NCBI GenBank assembly: GCA_963803145.1
Contig: CAWDLW010000008.1
Span: 96,001-160,000, forward strand
DNA length: 64,000 bases
Source of the DNA: Methanotrichaceae archaeon
GTDB lineage: Archaea; Halobacteriota; Methanosarcinia; Methanotrichales; Methanotrichaceae
Reading direction: 5' to 3'
The notes beneath the pieces are model-generated. The model saw only the letters and a list, made by a program, of their open reading frames with translations. It did no database searches and was not told where the DNA came from. Each line of letters starts with the position of its first letter. The first letter of the stretch is position 1. The position numbers and the translations under genes are program-made. Shown one piece after another: positions 48,248-55,161 of the stretch.

Positions 48248-51200
48248 ATGGCGATTGATAACCTTTCTCAAAGGATCTCTGAGCTTTCACAGCGATTAGA
48301 GGAGCTCCAGGCAAGGTGCGTGAACAATCCGGAATATGCGCCCGAAGTCCTATCCGATGCCCTGGATAGCCTCCAGGCCAGCCTTGAGGAGCTATCGGCT
48401 GCGGATGAGGAGCTTATACAGCAGAATGAGGAACTCAAGCACGCTCAATCGACGCTGCAGAAGAGTGAGGAAAAGTTCCGACTGGTTGCCGATTTCACCT
48501 ATGATTGGGAAACTTGGATAGACCCTAAGGGGAACTATGTTTATGTTTCGCCTTCCTGCGAGCGAATAACCGGATATTATGCCGAAGAATTCATAGAGAA
48601 TCCCTCTCTTTCCATAGACATAATACATCCAGATGACAAGGAAGCTTTTAAACAGCATCAAAATGTCCATTTCGATGAACAGACTGATAGCGCGCAAATC
48701 GATTATCGTATTATAACAACGAAAGGAGAGATCCGTTGGATCAGTCATATCTGCCAACCGGTATTCGAAAGGAATGGGGAATGGCTTGGGCGTAGGGCAA
48801 GTAATAGGGACATCACAGAGCGAAAGCGGGCCGAGGAGGCTTTGCGCAAGAGTGAAGCGAAACTCCGCGCCGTCTTTAGATCCCTCTCAGAAGGCATCGT
48901 CTTCCTCAACACTAAAGGCGATGTGGAAGAGGTTAACGAAGCTGTACAACGCATACATGGCCATACTCTGGAGGAGTTAGCTGACCCCAAACTCGATCCA
49001 CGTTGGCAAATAATCCGACCAGATGGCACACTTTTCCCGGTTGATGAACAACCAGCGATAGTAGCGCTTCGTACTGGGCAGGCTGTGCAGGATGTTGAAA
49101 TGGGTGTCCCAATGTCTGATGGGAAGTTAAGATGGCGACTTGTGAACGCACAGCCGGTATATGATGATAGCGAAAACCTGCTTGGGGCAGTGGCGTCGTT
49201 CTTCGATATCACCGAGCGCAAGCAGGCTGAGGAGTTGCTTCGCCAATCGGAGCAGCATTTCCGACTGCTGTTCGAGACCATGCTTCAAGGGGTGGTCTAC
49301 CATGATGCGGATGGCACAATTCTCTCAATGAATCCCGCAGCCGAGAAGATACTCGGCAAGACCCGAGAGGAGTTTCTGGGCAGCTCTTCCGTAGGTCAAG
49401 AGCACTTTACCATAAAAGAGGACGGTTCTCCCTTCCCTGGTCTAGAGCATCCTGCCATGGTTTCTCTTCGCACAGGGCAGGAAGTGCATAACGTTATGAT
49501 GGGGGTTTACAATCCTCGAAGGGGCTGTTACCGCTGGATAAGCATCGATGCGGTGCCCATCCTCCGGCCTGGGGAAGATAGGCCATATCAGGTTTACACA
49601 ATCTTCGATGACATTACCGAGAGGAAGAAGGCCGAGGAGGCGTTGAGGGAAAGCGAAAAGAAATATCGGCATATTGTGGATTATGCGCCCACAGGCATCT
49701 ATGAAATTGACTACGCCGGTCCTCGATTCAAGCGCGTTAACGATGCCATGTGTCAAATCCTTGGCTATACTCAAGAGGAGTTAATGGCGACGAACCCCTT
49801 AGACCTTTTGGATGAAGAAAGCCAACAGCGATTCCAGGAACGAATTCAGAAGGTGTTAGCTGGGGAGCCTATTGATGAGTCCGTCGCATTCCGTGTATTC
49901 GGCAAGGATGGCCGAGAGATGTGGGCTGCCCTCAATGTCAAACCAATGTATACCGATGGTAAACTGGATGGCGCCTTGGTCGTTGCGCATGACATTACTG
50001 ATCGGAAACGGATGGAAGAGGCGCTACGCAAATCGAAGGATGAGCTTGAGCAACGTGTCCAGGAGAGGACATCCGAGCTATCCAATGCAAAAGAGAACCT
50101 TGAAGCGATCAACGAAGAGCTTCAGGTGGAGATCTTAGAGCACGAGAAGACAGAGAAAGAGCTTTTGAAAGCTAAAGAGGCTGCAGAGGCCGCAGTCGAG
50201 GCCAAGGCTGCGTTCCTGGCAAACATGAGTCATGAGCTCAGGACACCTCTGAATGCTGTTATAGGTTTCTCAAGCCTACTCTTGGAGGATAACCTTACAC
50301 AGGATCAGAAGGAGAGCATCGAAAGAATCAGGAACGGCGGCGAAGCTCTCCTCTCCCTAATCAGCGATATCCTTGAGTTCTCGAGGGCAGAAAAGGAGAA
50401 GATAACGCTGGAGCATCAGCCGTTAAGCCTCAAGCGTTGTATCGAGGAGTCTATGGATATGGTGGCGGTGCAGGCCAACGATAAGGGCCTGAACCTTGCT
50501 TATACTATCAGCTACGGCACACCAGATACAATCATCAGTGATCCCGGAAGGCTTAGACAAGTTCTAGTCAATTTGCTTAGTAATGCTGTTAAATTCACTG
50601 ATGAAGGAGATATATCGGTATCTGTTTCCTCAATAATTATTGAGGGCAATAAGCGCAAAATAACTTTTGCGGTCAAGGATACTGGCATTGGCATGCCTCA
50701 AGATAAGATGGATAGACTCTTTAAGCCCTTTACACAGCTTGAATACGTAATAAGCCGCAAGCGTGATGGCGCAGGACTTGGACTCGCCATAAGCAAGAGG
50801 CTTGTCGAACTCATGGGCGGAGAGATATGGGCTGAAAGCGAGGAGGGCATAGGCTCGACCTTCAGATTCACTATTCCCGTAGAGACAATCCCTGGAAAGC
50901 AACTGGACTTAGGCGAGAAGGATAGAGTTGAGTATGAGAACCTCTCTGCTCAAAAGCCCCTGAGCATTCTTGTGGCCGAAGACAATCCTTCAAACCAGAG
51001 GGTTCTCGTTGAGATGCTGAAGCGATTGGGCTACAGGGTGGATTCTGTGGCTGATGGTGTCGAGGTTCTGCAGGCCCTCCAAATCCGTCCTTACGACCTG
51101 ATATTCATGGATATCAAAATGCCAGAGATGGACGGCCTCACGGCCACCAGGGAGATACGAAAGCTATGGCCTGAAAACGGACCGAAGATTATAGCTATCA

Positions 51201-51316
51201 CAGCCTTCGCAATGGATGGCGATCGTGAGAAGTGCCTGGAAGCTGGCATGGATGACTACATCGCAAAGCCTGTGAAAGTGGATGATCTTGCGACGCTACT
51301 ACACAATTTGGCATAG
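48248..51316 (+). CDS. Multi-PAS hybrid sensor histidine kinase/response regulator
   Basis: Coiled-coil N-terminus, four PAS/PAC, H-box FLANMSHELRTPLN, HATPase, receiver. Confidence 0.95.
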   Translation: MAIDNLSQRISELSQRLEELQARCVNNPEYAPEVLSDALDSLQASLEELSAADEELIQQNEELKHAQSTLQKSEEKFRLVADFTYDWETWIDPKGNYVYVSPSCERITGYYAEEFIENPSLSIDIIHPDDKEAFKQHQNVHFDEQTDSAQIDYRIITTKGEIRWISHICQPVFERNGEWLGRRASNRDITERKRAEEALRKSEAKLRAVFRSLSEGIVFLNTKGDVEEVNEAVQRIHGHTLEELADPKLDPRWQIIRPDGTLFPVDEQPAIVALRTGQAVQDVEMGVPMSDGKLRWRLVNAQPVYDDSENLLGAVASFFDITERKQAEELLRQSEQHFRLLFETMLQGVVYHDADGTILSMNPAAEKILGKTREEFLGSSSVGQEHFTIKEDGSPFPGLEHPAMVSLRTGQEVHNVMMGVYNPRRGCYRWISIDAVPILRPGEDRPYQVYTIFDDITERKKAEEALRESEKKYRHIVDYAPTGIYEIDYAGPRFKRVNDAMCQILGYTQEELMATNPLDLLDEESQQRFQERIQKVLAGEPIDESVAFRVFGKDGREMWAALNVKPMYTDGKLDGALVVAHDITDRKRMEEALRKSKDELEQRVQERTSELSNAKENLEAINEELQVEILEHEKTEKELLKAKEAAEAAVEAKAAFLANMSHELRTPLNAVIGFSSLLLEDNLTQDQKESIERIRNGGEALLSLISDILEFSRAEKEKITLEHQPLSLKRCIEESMDMVAVQANDKGLNLAYTISYGTPDTIISDPGRLRQVLVNLLSNAVKFTDEGDISVSVSSIIIEGNKRKITFAVKDTGIGMPQDKMDRLFKPFTQLEYVISRKRDGAGLGLAISKRLVELMGGEIWAESEEGIGSTFRFTIPVETIPGKQLDLGEKDRVEYENLSAQKPLSILVAEDNPSNQRVLVEMLKRLGYRVDSVADGVEVLQALQIRPYDLIFMDIKMPEMDGLTATREIRKLWPENGPKIIAITAFAMDGDREKCLEAGMDDYIAKPVKVDDLATLLHNLA

Positions 51317-51410
51317 AACTGTGTGATTTCAACACAAACCTCGAAATAAGTAGCTCTCTGTCCAGCCATCCACCTCTCGCCAGTCAAAGCTATGCAAAAG
51401 CCTGGCAAGG

Positions 51411-51420
51411 GTTTTTTATA
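51411..51420 (+). promoter_or_regulatory. Putative TATA box of the uORF-leuA-tatD unit
   Basis: GTTTTTTATA ends 23 nt before ATG 51444, the spacing expected for a leaderless archaeal transcript. Confidence 0.6.
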
Positions 51421-51443
51421 GAACTTAAGCTCAACCTCTAATC

Positions 51444-51482
51444 ATGACACAGAATTCTTCTGTGAGGGATTGCCTTCTATGA
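51444..51482 (+). promoter_or_regulatory. 12-codon uORF/leader peptide MTQNSSVRDCLL
   Basis: ATG at the predicted TSS; ends GTGAGGGAT-TGC-CTT-CTA-TGA; the leuA frame is +1 and open across the Leu codons. Confidence 0.6.
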
Positions 51483-51483
51483 T

Positions 51484-53007
51484 ATGAGGGCGCTTAGTGG
51501 TGCCGAAGTAAGAATCTTCGATACGACTCTTCGTGACGGCGAACAAACACCGGGCGTCTCTCTGATGCCTGATGAAAAGCTCATTATCGCGAGACAGCTT
51601 GATAAACTCGGTGTAAACATCATCGAGGCGGGTTTTCCGATATCCTCTAAAGGCGAGTTTGAAAGCGTTAAGGCAATCGCCCATGAGGGACTCTCTGCGC
51701 AGATCTGCGGCCTCTCAAGGGTCATCATCAAGGACATCGATGCCAGTCTTGATGCAGACGTCGACCTCGTGCATGTTTTCGTTTCTACCTCAGATATACA
51801 GATAGCCCATACCATCAAGAAGAGCTATGATGAGATCGTTGCAGATTCGGTGAAGGCTGTTGAGCATGTCAAAGATCACGGCAGGATCTGTCTCTTCTCT
51901 GCAATGGATGCCACAAGGACATCGCCTGAGTTTCTTAGAAGAATCTTTGGGGCTGTAGAGGAGGCTGGAGCAGACATAATCAATATTCCGGATACTGTAG
52001 GCGTATGCGTGCCTTCTGCTTTTTACCGCCTCGTCAAGGAAATCTGCGATAACACCCAAAGGATGACTGTAGATGTCCATTGTCATAACGACTTTGGCCT
52101 TGCAGTTGCCAACAGCCTTGCAGCCTTCGAGGCTGGCGCTAGGGAGATCCAGGTCTGCGTCAATGGCCTTGGCGAGAGGGCAGGGAATGCAAATCTTGCC
52201 GAGACTGTGATGAGCCTTCACTCAATCTATGGTGCAAAGACGAGCATAAAAACTGAGTATCTCGTTGAAACTGCAAGGCTTGTTGAGCGGCTCTCCGAGG
52301 TCAGGATTCCAATCACAGCTCCGATCGTAGGCGAGAATGCGTTTTCGCATGAGAGCGGCATTCACAGCCATGGGGTGATAGAGAATAGCAAAACATTTGA
52401 GCCTGGGATCATGACGCCTGAGATGGTCGGCCATAAGAGGCGCATAGTTCTCGGAAAGCATACAGGCCGCCATGCTGTCCGGCAGGTCCTTGGAGAGGCA
52501 GGCTATCACCCCACAGAAGACCAGCTTCAGGATATTCTCAACAGGATCAAGGAGCTTGGAGATAAAGGCAAGCAGATTACGGATGCAGATCTTCAGACGA
52601 TAGCAGACGTGATTATCGGAGAGGTCGCAAAGGGACGCCAGGCTGTAACCCTGAAGGAGGTCTCTGTCATGACAGGGAACATCATTACTCCTACGGCGAC
52701 AGTCAAGGCTCTTGTTCGCGGCAAGGAACGCGTCCTCGCAAATACCGGTGTAGGCCCAGTGGATGCTGCAGTAAAGGCAGTCCAGGGCCTCCTTGACAGC
52801 GATACATCTATACATCTCTGCGACTTCAGGATCGATGCAATATCAGGCGGATCTGATGCCCTGGCAGAGGTAATAATCGGCGTCGAGGATGACCGCGGCA
52901 GGAAGGTCAGCGCACGATCGGCCCGCGAGGATATCGTCATGGCGTCTGTCGAGGCGCTTGTCAGTGCCATCAATCGATTAATGCTTTTGGAGGAAGAGAA
53001 AAGTTGA
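51484..53007 (+). CDS. leuA: 2-isopropylmalate synthase (LeuA; CimA not excluded)
   Basis: [42 protein letters not shown]-terminal regulatory domain GVGPVDA. Confidence 0.85.
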
Positions 53008-53768
53008 TACGTTGGGAAATAATCGACTCCCATTGCCACCTCGATTTCAAGCAGTTCAATAAAGATAGAGAGGCTGTGATAGAGCGGGCCCGGGACTGCG
53101 GCATCGTGCTGATGATCAACTCTGGGATTGATCTTGCGAGCAACATAAGATCGCTCAAGATGGCAGAAGAGAACGAATTCATATATCCCACATTGGGGCT
53201 GAACCCCAACTCTTTGGGAAGCCTGAGCGATGATGACCTGAATGCCACGTTAAATCATATGAAGGAGAACGCCGATAAAACCCTAGGGATAGGTGAGGCA
53301 GGGCTGGACTATTACAGATGCTCAGATCAAGCGAGCCGAAGCCGTCAGGCCGATGTCTTTGGACGGGTAATTGAGGTCGCCAGGTCCCTCGACCTTCCTT
53401 TAATCATCCATTCCCGTGACGCCGAGCAGCAGGCTCTTGAGATGGTCAAGGATCTTAACAAGGTCATATTCCACTGCTACGGCGGAACCCTCGGCACAAT
53501 GAAGGAAGCTGTTGACCGCGGTTTTTACATCTCCATAGCGACTGTTATCTGTCATTCGCCTCATCATCAGATCCTGGCAAGAAATGTTCCTCTTGACAGG
53601 CTGCTGGTAGAGACCGATAGCCCATTTTTATCGCCTAGAAAGGGCAGAAATGAGCCGTCTTATGTCCTTGATTCAGTTAGGCTTATAGCGAAGATAAGGG
53701 GCATGCAGCCGTCGGAGATAGCCCGGATAACTAGCGAAAACACAAGGAAGATCTTCGATATTCGCTGA
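53004..53768 (+). CDS. tatD: TatD family deoxyribonuclease
   Basis: DSHCHLD, IGEAGLDY, IIHSRDA, FHCY, ETDSPFL. Confidence 0.95.
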   Translation: MIRWEIIDSHCHLDFKQFNKDREAVIERARDCGIVLMINSGIDLASNIRSLKMAEENEFIYPTLGLNPNSLGSLSDDDLNATLNHMKENADKTLGIGEAGLDYYRCSDQASRSRQADVFGRVIEVARSLDLPLIIHSRDAEQQALEMVKDLNKVIFHCYGGTLGTMKEAVDRGFYISIATVICHSPHHQILARNVPLDRLLVETDSPFLSPRKGRNEPSYVLDSVRLIAKIRGMQPSEIARITSENTRKIFDIR

Positions 53769-53832: not shown

Positions 53833-54321
53833 ATGGCAATACACTTCGAACACATCATGAGATATCTGGGCTCCAAAAAGGAAAAAGGGAGAAAGAAGAT
53901 AGGTCTTCTCGTGGACGGCCCCAACATGCTTAGAAAGGAGTTCCAGATGGATCTTGAAGAGATCAGGGACATGCTAAAGGATTACGGCGATATCAAGATG
54001 GGAAAGGTCTTCCTGAATCAGTATGCATCCGATAAGCTTGTCGAGGCTGTGGAAAATCAGGGATTTGAGCCCGTCATCTGTACAAGCGATGTGGATGTGC
54101 GCATGGCAGTTGAGGGCGTGGACATGATCTATAATCCTGTCATAGATACTATTGCCCTCGTCACAAGAGATGCAGATCTCAAGCCAGTGCTCATGAAGGC
54201 AATGGAGCACGGCAAAGAGACGATAATCTTTGGAGCTGAGCCCGGGTTCTCCGTAGCCCTAAAGAATTCGGCGGATTATGTCATAGTTTTACGCGACGGT
54301 CAGTATGTGACGGACGCGTGA
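53833..54321 (+). CDS. NYN domain protein (archaeal TIGR00288-like)
   Basis: LLVDGPNMLRKE, SDVDV, TRDAD. Confidence 0.9.
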   Translation: MAIHFEHIMRYLGSKKEKGRKKIGLLVDGPNMLRKEFQMDLEEIRDMLKDYGDIKMGKVFLNQYASDKLVEAVENQGFEPVICTSDVDVRMAVEGVDMIYNPVIDTIALVTRDADLKPVLMKAMEHGKETIIFGAEPGFSVALKNSADYVIVLRDGQYVTDA

Positions 54322-54390: not shown

Positions 54391-55161
54391 TTGAGTCACA
54401 CTATAAATCAGGGAAATCACGCCCAAGGCATAATAAATGGTTCCTATAGCTTTGACTGGCGCTTGCGTCTCTCAGGCTTCTTCCCCTCTTTAGCTCCTAT
54501 CGGACAGAGAGTTGACTACCGACACAAGAACGGGGATAACTCCAGGCCCTGGGAGAGCTCGAGCTGGCGGGATAGGATACCATCGGTACCTGGTCTGCCT
54601 GTGTCTTATACAGGCGTGATCTTACTATTATGCGTAATAGTATTCTTCATAAGCCTAATAGCCCCAGGCTTTGTTTACACTAATCTTGCACTGAACCCTG
54701 CCGATCTAATGCAGAAGCCCTGGACGATTATAACACACATGTTCGTCCACGCAAACTTTGATCACCTTTTCTGGAATATGCTCTTCTTATTTTTCTTCGG
54801 AACTGAACTTGAGCGGCGTATCGGAGAAGGTAAATTCTTAGGAATATATCTATTATCAGGGATAGTGGCAGCTACTGGTCAAATACTTCTTGTGCCCACA
54901 GGAACGCTTGTAGGTGCGAGCGGTGCATTATATGGCGTTCTCGGATGCCTGGCTATAATTGCGCCTGAAATTCGTGTATTCCTTTTCTTTATCATACCTA
55001 TGACCATAAGGTGGGCAGTTGTGCTCTTTGCAGTTATTGATTTCCTGATGTCCGGGACATCGGATAACATAGCTCATGCAGCCCACCTGTCGGGGCTGGC
55101 TTTAGGATTGATAATCGGTTACATGATGAAGAAAGGGCAGCCTAGTTATTATCATGTCTAA
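54391..55161 (+). CDS. Rhomboid family intramembrane serine protease
   Basis: HMFVHA..HLFWNM, GASG, AHAAHLSG; start uncertain. Confidence 0.92.
   Translation: MSHTINQGNHAQGIINGSYSFDWRLRLSGFFPSLAPIGQRVDYRHKNGDNSRPWESSSWRDRIPSVPGLPVSYTGVILLLCVIVFFISLIAPGFVYTNLALNPADLMQKPWTIITHMFVHANFDHLFWNMLFLFFFGTELERRIGEGKFLGIYLLSGIVAATGQILLVPTGTLVGASGALYGVLGCLAIIAPEIRVFLFFIIPMTIRWAVVLFAVIDFLMSGTSDNIAHAAHLSGLALGLIIGYMMKKGQPSYYHV

Follow-up and report, generated by a model that had tools for sequence, protein, structure and literature searches.

The 64,000-nucleotide (nt) stretch of a Methanotrichaceae genome analysed here, called the window below, carries leuA, the gene for 2-isopropylmalate synthase, and the subject of this work is the 5′ end of that gene at positions 51404-51490, where two reading frames overlap. 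By sequence, the gene product is a LeuA-family synthase: it scores 705.4 bits against a cut-off of 517 for the NCBIfam LeuA-family model NF002085, contains the DTTLRDGEQ motif, and has a cluster record that lists the Pfam domains PF00682 and PF08502, the latter being the LeuA_dimer C-terminal domain. Relatives of the gene carry the name 2-isopropylmalate synthase in their source records, and the public records for the family of the window genome are named Methanothrix or Methanotrichaceae. The gene-finder model begins at ATG 51484, and the frame of the enzyme is open from GGG 51466 through this ATG to 53007.

A 12-codon open reading frame (ORF) starts upstream at ATG 51444, and leucine is coded in it only by CTT and CTA, which precede its TGA. 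We refer to the frame of this ORF as the 0 frame; the enzyme is in the +1 frame, which is closed upstream by a TGA. A TATA-like TTTTTTATA at 51412-51420, preceded by GGCAAGGG, is separated from ATG 51444 by 23 nt (51421-51443), and the Shine-Dalgarno-like (SD-like) GTGAGGGAT occupies 51462-51470, a few nt upstream of CTT. The TATA-like box, the 12-codon ORF, the SD-like element and the +1 offset of an enzyme frame open from 51466 had all been described in an original prediction made from the letters alone, and all are confirmed. The stretch 51444-51486 reads ATGACACAGAATTCTTCTGTGAGGGATTGCCTTCTATGATATG, and a GGCAARRGTTTTATA block is kept among the loci of the leuA family f1, to which the window gene belongs.

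A step of one base in the +1 direction at CTTC joins the two frames into one uninterrupted protein that reaches the catalytic DTT motif (predicted product P0241), in keeping with the transframe reading proposed earlier. The layout, whose parts are listed in Table 1, is conserved among leuA loci. Taken as a whole, the leuA start probably carries a conserved +1 frameshift cassette resembling that of bacterial prfB, mirrored in the paralogous gene cimA and tuned by the supply of the cognate aminoacyl-tRNA.

Table 1. Features of the leuA 5′ region in the window (BRE, B recognition element; MFE, minimum free energy)
Feature	Position	Strand	Basis or remark
BRE-like GGCAAGGG and TATA-like TTTTTTATA promoter	51404..51420	+	sequence inspection; conservation in family f1
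0-frame ORF: ATG and 11 further sense codons, then TGA	51444..51482	+	proposed true leuA translation start
Local hairpin, 7 bp with 3-nt loop	51448..51464	+	MFE fold; probably incidental
TGA closing the leuA (+1) frame, immediately 5′ of GGG 51466	51463..51465	+	sequence inspection
SD-like AGGGATT, 2 nt between its end and the slip codon	51465..51471	+	most conserved block
CTT, proposed P-site slip codon (CUU to UUC)	51474..51476	+	NTT at all sites (detector criterion)
CTA, 0-frame A-site Leu codon, proposed sensor	51477..51479	+	Leu codon in 93/93 leuA sites
TGA, stop of the 0-frame ORF	51480..51482	+	sequence inspection
leuA (2-isopropylmalate synthase), ORF from in-frame ATG	51484..53007	+	frame itself open from 51466

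Conservation of the layout among leuA orthologues

Orthologues were collected by protein search from 41 of 41 related genomes, from 147 of 151 of the class at E ≤ 1e-150 and from 158 of 201 of the phylum at E ≤ 1e-160. The 5′ ends were then read at 111 orthologous leuA loci, which represent 24 families of one phylum and, being relatives, are non-independent samples. Since the site detector required an NTT codon followed by a Leu or Ile codon, together with an ATG or GTG in the 0 frame, these features are partly criteria rather than results; two sites of family f11 (L084 and L085) were false positives within the promoter and were dropped before counting. The layout was found in 29/30, 41/41 and 23/40 of the loci, that is, in 93 of the 111 and in 18 of the 24 families. 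Its consensus consists of a promoter-proximal start codon, 4-24 poorly conserved codons, GGGATYGN, NTT and a Leu codon, with the enzyme in the +1 frame.

The nucleotide conservation forms an island from -10 to +6 around the NTT codon and amounts to 0.0-0.7 bits beyond it. Whereas a lone 12-codon ORF would be unremarkable, conservation that is so sharply bounded and recurs in 93 of 111 loci implies that the 0-frame ORF is more than a chance occurrence. Ordinary in-frame ATG starts without the cassette are found in families f7, f11, f14, f17, f21 and f28, and families f8, f15, f20 and f6 are weak or variant members. Within the class, L024 (family f2, genus g17) is the only leuA locus that lacks the cassette; this locus combines an SD-like AAAGGAGGAG with an out-of-frame ATG whose frame relation differs, and has an in-frame GTG 8 codons before DTT.

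Many of these loci have no start codon of their own in the enzyme frame. Between the upstream stop and DTTLRDGEQ, this frame contains no ATG in 70 of the 93 loci and neither ATG, GTG nor TTG in 48 of them, so that in the latter the protein can ordinarily be reached only through a +1 shift. These 48 loci, and the retention over 18 families of the ATG frame, the SD-like element, NTT and the Leu codon, lend comparative support to the predicted slip into the leuA frame. Of the features that the original prediction proposed to look for, the 0-frame ATG, the SD-like element and orthologues without an in-frame start were all seen at the loci read, and CTT-CTN was seen in the broader form of NTT followed by a Leu codon.

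The layout extends to haloarchaeon-like genomes (L283-L287; families f12, f23 and f24), which fell below the first cut-off and have a shorter LeuA homologue with 51-53% identity and about 375 residues after DTT. It is present in 5/5 of them, with a TATA-proximal ATG, a 0-frame ORF of 21-26 codons, the site CGAGTTCTTCCA and the enzyme in the +1 frame, and 4/5 have no in-frame start. A pattern scan of the genomes of named species gave, among the matches listed, at least 80 loci, comprising 44 true leuA 5′ ends and 36 chance matches, mostly bacterial; the leuA 5′ ends among these listed matches belong to Methanothrix, Methanosaeta, Methanosarcina, Methanohalophilus, Methanococcoides, Methanolobus, Methanomethylovorans, Candidatus Methanoperedens and Methanocellales. 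A motif scan of the window genome returned 18 raw hits, and only those at leuA and cimA have a closed upstream enzyme frame; no further gene with the cassette was found in this genome by this motif.

Public annotation of leuA is uneven at the same place. Among the best 120 public protein clusters, 77 are modelled from a downstream ATG or GTG and therefore miss DTTLRDGEQ, and none of the 120 carries the 0-frame residues. Other public models start at odd codons within the +1 frame, and one (P0142, 519 amino acids) reads on in the 0 frame for about 30 residues. Inconsistency of this kind among public gene models is the usual mark of unrecognised recoding.

The position of the promoter bears on where translation begins. 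In 34 of the 44 f1 loci the TATA-like box ends 22-25 nt upstream of the conserved ATG, a spacing that in archaeal promoters places the transcription start site at the ATG. The f1 spacing, combined with this general knowledge, suggests a leaderless mRNA and gives comparative support to the earlier proposal that the mRNA probably begins at ATG 51444. In a Methanosarcina-like family, the box ends 28-31 nt upstream of the ATG in 14 of 19 loci, giving a short leader.

The 0-frame ATG is present in all 93 loci with the layout, partly by the detector criterion, and it is always in the frame of the site, at distances of 4, 5, 6, 7, 8, 9, 10, 11, 13, 16 and 24 codons; in L046 and L047 a 9-nt insertion between the ATG and the site keeps the frame. 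In relatives, the ATG codons of the 48 nt upstream number 130, 32 and 11 for the 0 frame, the enzyme frame and the third frame, respectively, and stops in the last 30 nt number 14, 112 and 27 in the same order, a frame bias that is partly circular because the detector demanded a 0-frame start. It is the 0-frame ATG, and not the enzyme frame, that bears a TATA box or an SD sequence at start-like distances. From these observations we infer that translation of leuA starts at 51444.

The cimA paralogue and the codon after NTT

The window genome contains, on another contig (C12), a cimA paralogue (L112) that is 50% identical to LeuA and whose relatives are named (R)- or D-citramalate synthase; this enzyme starts the isoleucine branch. 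The 5′ end of L112 presents an SD sequence, ATG, the cassette element, TTT, ATC and a stop two codons on, with the enzyme in the +1 frame, and four bases past the 0-frame ATG there is a further ATG, in frame with the enzyme. The cassette was found in 38 of 50 cimA loci, from 15 families, and 18 of the 38 have no in-frame ATG, GTG or TTG. L128 (f19) is included in the 38 though it resembles a conventional ATG start, and L135, which has the motif without a 0-frame ATG or GTG, is excluded. Typically, the 0-frame ORF reads M-R-D-R-F-I with 0-2 further codons, the open +1 frame begins immediately behind a TGA overlapping the ATG, and in 24 of the 38 loci an SD sequence of the GGTG type lies 4-10 nt 5′ of the 0-frame start. 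In L141, which has a conventional GTG start, CTTTTG stands at the cassette position instead.

The two genes are divergent neighbours, about 300 nt apart, in one genome of family f27 (G242, contig C1, 1966725-1969954). The cassette form AGTGATTAC occurs in the leuA of this genome (L102) and in the f27 cimA of another (L163).

The codon after NTT, which would stand in the ribosomal aminoacyl site (A site) with NTT in the peptidyl site (P site), separates the two genes. It codes for Leu at 93 of 93 leuA sites (CTA 47, TTA 35, CTT 8, CTG 1, CTC 1, TTG 1) and for Ile at 38 of 38 cimA sites (ATT 33, ATC 5), and since the detector took Leu or Ile for either gene, this split is a result of the analysis. 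Codons for the end product occur in tandem in the window leuA, as CTT then CTA, and in the f3 cimA, as tandem Ile. The leuA codon varies over six synonyms, and the overlapping residue of the +1 frame is Y, F, S, C or W. In all 9 loci whose leuA A-site codon ends in T or C, that codon begins with C and is thus never Phe. In cimA, an A is kept after TTT at 38 of 38 sites; it is worse for re-pairing of tRNA-Phe and is needed for the Ile codon, and with the contexts TTT-A or ATT-A re-pairing is weaker in cimA than in leuA.

The contrast between Leu in leuA and Ile in cimA supports sensing of the charged tRNA of the end product, and thereby gives comparative support to the leucine sensing put forward in the original prediction. 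Sensing of Leu by the cassette, which we derive solely from this codon contrast, seems to us an even call.

The proposed frameshift and competing explanations

At the leuA sites (n = 93), NTT is CTT in 47, TTT in 44 and GTT in 2, and CTT or TTT is followed by C or T in 91, the window having CTT-C. In the +1 direction, CUU or UUU before C or U re-pairs as UUC or UUU, and NTT is the only codon that offers such re-pairing in all lineages. Many loci have a +1-frame TGA immediately 5′ of GGG, and the 0-frame stop falls 0-10 codons after the Leu codon in relatives (immediately after it in 17 of the 93 leuA loci); these two boundaries confine the shift to five codons, xGG, GAT, YGN, NTT and Leu. Among them, we infer NTT to be the slip codon. 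A slip at xGG-G, considered because GGG-to-GGA and ATC-to-ATT changes leave the +1 residues unaltered, was discarded: several cimA families have AGT or ACA as x-G-G, and NTT is universal. Transcriptional slippage was ruled out, as the most species-rich genus has CGTCTTCTAC at the site, without a homopolymer.

Across the cassettes, GGGATY or AGTGATT ends 2 nt before NTT. The 3′ tail of the 16S rRNA of the window genome is GGATCACCTCCT, complementary to the SD-like element, and AGGGAUU may pair with it as 3 + 4 bp with one bulged A, as drawn by hand. For the AGTGATT variant (f6, f26 and f27) six contiguous pairs with the tail are predicted, and the Y fits a C-G or U-G pair. Two 16S rRNA 3′ ends are present in the window genome, on contigs C8 and C20 and with identical flanks; the contamination rating of the assembly is 6.77%. 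A tRNA-Leu(GAG) gene is also present. CTA makes up 1% of the Leu codons in the 44 f1 leuA bodies and TTA 1% in f3, so the sensor codons CTA and TTA are the rarest Leu codons of the gene bodies, and a single tRNA gene of the window genome reads each.

We propose the following course of events. Transcription would start at or beside ATG 51444 and produce a leaderless mRNA, on which ribosomes would read ten 0-frame codons until CUU (51474-76) occupies the P site and the rare CUA the A site. At that point the 3′ end of 16S rRNA would pair with AGGGAUU, the SD-like element a short way upstream, and peptidyl-tRNA-Leu(GAG) could slip from CUU to UUC. Translation would then go on in the leuA frame from UAU; ribosomes quick enough to decode CUA would terminate at TGA 51480. 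Since the event competing with the slip is the arrival of Leu-tRNA, less charged tRNA-Leu should raise LeuA. Scarcity of charged tRNA-Leu would thus mean more slipping and more LeuA, closing a feedback loop. Under-charged tRNA-Leu would turn LeuA on, and under-charged tRNA-Ile would do the same for CimA.

The comparative record argues that the cassette is a working programmed +1 frameshift site in this lineage, and we regard this as likely. The fuller interpretation, in which 51404-51490 comprises a promoter and a programmed +1 frameshift cassette that senses Leu supply for leuA, is in our judgement the best explanation overall, and we hold it with slightly better than even confidence.

Several observations weigh against it, in addition to the detector criteria mentioned above. 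The SD-like element is absent from the f6 leuA, re-pairing is poor in the ATT-ATT and GTT-CTT variants, and in the CTTCTTC and GTTCTTC variants the slip could fall at the next codon, the A site then holding a His or Pro codon. Both leuA and cimA of the window genome have an in-frame ATG, so that neither gene strictly needs a shift here. ATC, the A-site codon of the window cimA, is the commonest Ile codon of the genome, and slowness at this A site is therefore not evident. Moreover, the Leu/Ile contrast may stem from one ancient difference between the paralogues that was kept for other reasons; if it goes back to a single event, counting loci overstates its weight. The sole metatranscriptome run located contains 0.05 of the sampled words, and its contigs, 85-95% alike, cover only 51567-52241 and not the 5′ end.

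A rival reading is a fixed +1 frameshift, which either sets a constant low ratio of LeuA to initiation or responds to a signal other than leucine, the Leu and Ile codons being inherited slow or slippery contexts. All evidence for frameshifting applies equally to such a device, a plain rare-codon pause would explain why the leuA A-site codons are the rarest Leu codons of the gene bodies, and the split between the paralogues could be one historical event. However, rarity fails for cimA, which uses ATT or the common ATC. Nor does a fixed shift readily accommodate a leuA A-site codon that is never Phe, as seen from the first base C in 9/9 loci, or the retention in cimA of an A that is unfavourable for re-pairing at every site. 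We consider a fixed frameshift unlikely, though by no means far-fetched.

In the genus of the window, the 12-codon ORF might instead be an upstream ORF, LeuA being made from ATG 51484 by reinitiation or independent initiation and the cassette being a relic or of minor use. ATG 51484 lies one base past the 0-frame stop, and TGA-T-ATG is a classic coupling distance; the coupling that had been named earlier as an alternative is possible in this genus alone, where the ATG is present in all three genomes (L001-L003) and is the start chosen by the gene finder. In 9 of 19 f3 loci, an in-frame ATG is found in a comparable position, 9 codons before DTT. Most relatives, however, have no ATG there: within f1 it is confined to this genus, the other 41 loci lack it at the equivalent place, and 24 of the 44 have no start codon at all. 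No SD sequence precedes ATG 51484, GAGG ending 16 nt upstream, and the cassette is wholly intact in this genus, which is unexpected for a relic. Expression from ATG 51484 as the principal route therefore appears improbable, and we think it reasonably likely that frameshifting is a main route to LeuA in the window genome.

It is very improbable that there is no frameshift and that LeuA starts at a non-canonical codon of its own frame, for example the conserved ATY after GGG or a CTG, with GGGAT as the ribosome-binding site. Some public models do begin in this way, for example with a first residue coded by CTG, and ATY is conserved in the +1 frame, the aligned codons in the f15 leuA being ATG or GTG. 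Yet GGG abuts ATY and leaves no SD spacing, the TATA and SD distances fit the 0-frame ATG, and that ATG is in the frame of the site at every spacer length; to our knowledge, leaderless initiation also requires a 5′-terminal AUG. Short ORFs before genes are common, but a chance ORF, an assembly error or a pseudogene is next to impossible to reconcile with a sharply bounded block that recurs in 93/111 leuA and 38/50 cimA loci of separate genomes, many of them complete, and with a closed-frame layout that appears, among the 18 motif hits of the window genome, only at leuA and cimA.

Surroundings, known systems and implications

The gene upstream of leuA (48248-51316, + strand) codes for a 1022-amino-acid hybrid sensor histidine kinase with PAS repeats and a C-terminal receiver domain, and ends 128 nt 5′ of the leuA start. 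Downstream on the same strand are a TatD-family hydrolase (53004-53768), starting at a TTG with a 4-nt overlap at the leuA stop, a TIGR00288 NYN-domain protein (53833-54321) and a rhomboid-like protease (54391-55161); none of these three (0/3) is a leucine-pathway gene.

RNA folding offers little at the site. The hairpin of Table 1 is a perfect 7-bp stem inside the 0-frame ORF that ends right before the SD-like element. The 97-nt stretch containing it has a z-score of -1.46, with 18 of 200 shuffles folding equally well, and the hairpin shows no conservation across families beyond close relatives. No conserved RNA structure emerged around the site from a consensus fold of 20 diverse loci, which reached only -0.41 kcal/mol with 5 weak pairs. 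A scan against Rfam gave no family at the site and only two sub-threshold snoRNA-like matches, within the gene. No terminator-like site was found in 51000-51800 by a promoter/terminator scan, which used a sigma-70 model that is irrelevant to archaea.

The closest likeness is to prfB, the gene for bacterial release factor 2, which is controlled by an autoregulatory +1 frameshift in which a short spacer separates an SD-like element from CUU and the A site is slow to fill. The prfB-like layout of the original prediction holds for the short 5′ 0-frame ORF, for the CUU codon that can re-pair in the +1 direction in the P site before a slowly filled A site, and for the SD-like element about 3 nt upstream, whose complementarity to 16S rRNA is here a predicted pairing. 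As in prfB, the product of the gene's own pathway would set the rate of the competing 0-frame event. The likeness does not extend to the A site, where leuA and cimA have a sense codon for Leu or Ile and prfB has UGA. Furthermore, the gene is not a release factor and belongs to an unrelated family in an archaeal host, an aminoacyl-tRNA would be sensed instead of a release factor, the 0-frame stop follows directly in only 17/93 leuA loci, and the leuA site is only 4-24 codons past the start. The cassette would work like prfB but falls outside the prfB family.

Yeast Ty1, ABP140 and EST3 undergo +1 frameshifts at heptamers of the CUU-AGG-C type, in which, as proposed for leuA, peptidyl-tRNA-Leu slips from CUU with a slow sense codon in the A site. 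Unlike the leuA cassette, these are eukaryotic, have no SD-like stimulator, and their hungry codon is unrelated to the function of the gene. Leader-peptide attenuation governs the bacterial leu, ilv, his, trp and thr operons, the leu leader containing rare CUA codons. The cassette resembles such leaders in that a very short ORF precedes a biosynthetic gene and its critical codons are those of the end product, Leu in leuA and Ile in cimA. It differs in that the output would be a change of reading frame rather than a choice between terminator and antiterminator, and in that the short ORF would be fused to the enzyme and not separate; our scans gave neither a terminator nor a conserved RNA structure. 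We know of no described archaeal counterpart of bacterial leader-peptide attenuation.

Antizyme (OAZ) is likewise made by a +1 frameshift, according to a 2021 review of archaeal recoding (PMC8211752), and there too the frameshift is both sensor and effector of a metabolic feedback loop; unlike the leuA cassette, it belongs to eukaryotes, responds to polyamines and has a stop codon in the A site. For Archaea, the same review gives one proven cellular case, the -1 frameshift of fucA1 in Saccharolobus solfataricus, which it calls the sole one reported, together with a halovirus +1 frameshift and one suggested for Mg-chelatase. The fucA1 example shares with leuA that recoding in a cellular archaeal gene occurs by frameshift, but its shift is -1, takes place on A-AAA-AAT ahead of a stem-loop and is strain-limited, and no regulatory logic is known for it (PMC8211752).

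No frameshift in archaeal leuA or cimA was found in full-text literature searches, with most subscription journals outside their coverage, and no earlier description of a leucine-sensing control of this kind in archaea appeared in the literature searched, as the original prediction had supposed. The searched portion of a 2016 review (PMC5009743) has no mention of isopropylmalate, leuA, citramalate or methanogen. The main text of a ribosome-profiling (Ribo-seq) paper on M. mazei (PMC11456600) does not contain leuA, isopropylmalate or frameshift; its lists of small ORFs might already include 0-frame ORFs. In a Halobacterium genome comparison (PMC7002104), leuA figures only as present or absent.

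If our interpretation is correct, amino-acid synthesis would be matched to supply by a change of ribosomal frame, and not by a repressor, a riboswitch or a terminator. Methanosarcina and the haloarchaea are groups with genetic tools, and the carriers of the cassette include Methanosarcina and haloarchaeon-like genomes. Many leuA gene models would need correction, given that 77 of the best 120 are without the catalytic motif. The cassette would then rank as the first +1 frameshift known to be conserved in cellular genes of Archaea and as the first amino-acid-sensing frameshift found in nature. It would also imply that SD/anti-SD pairing acts on elongating archaeal ribosomes, and it would be ancient enough for two paralogous enzymes to have it in common. 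We tentatively suggest, at somewhat less than even confidence, that this phylum of methanogens, methane oxidisers and haloarchaea uses 5′-terminal "frameshift attenuators", in which the A-site codon specifies the end product of the pathway.

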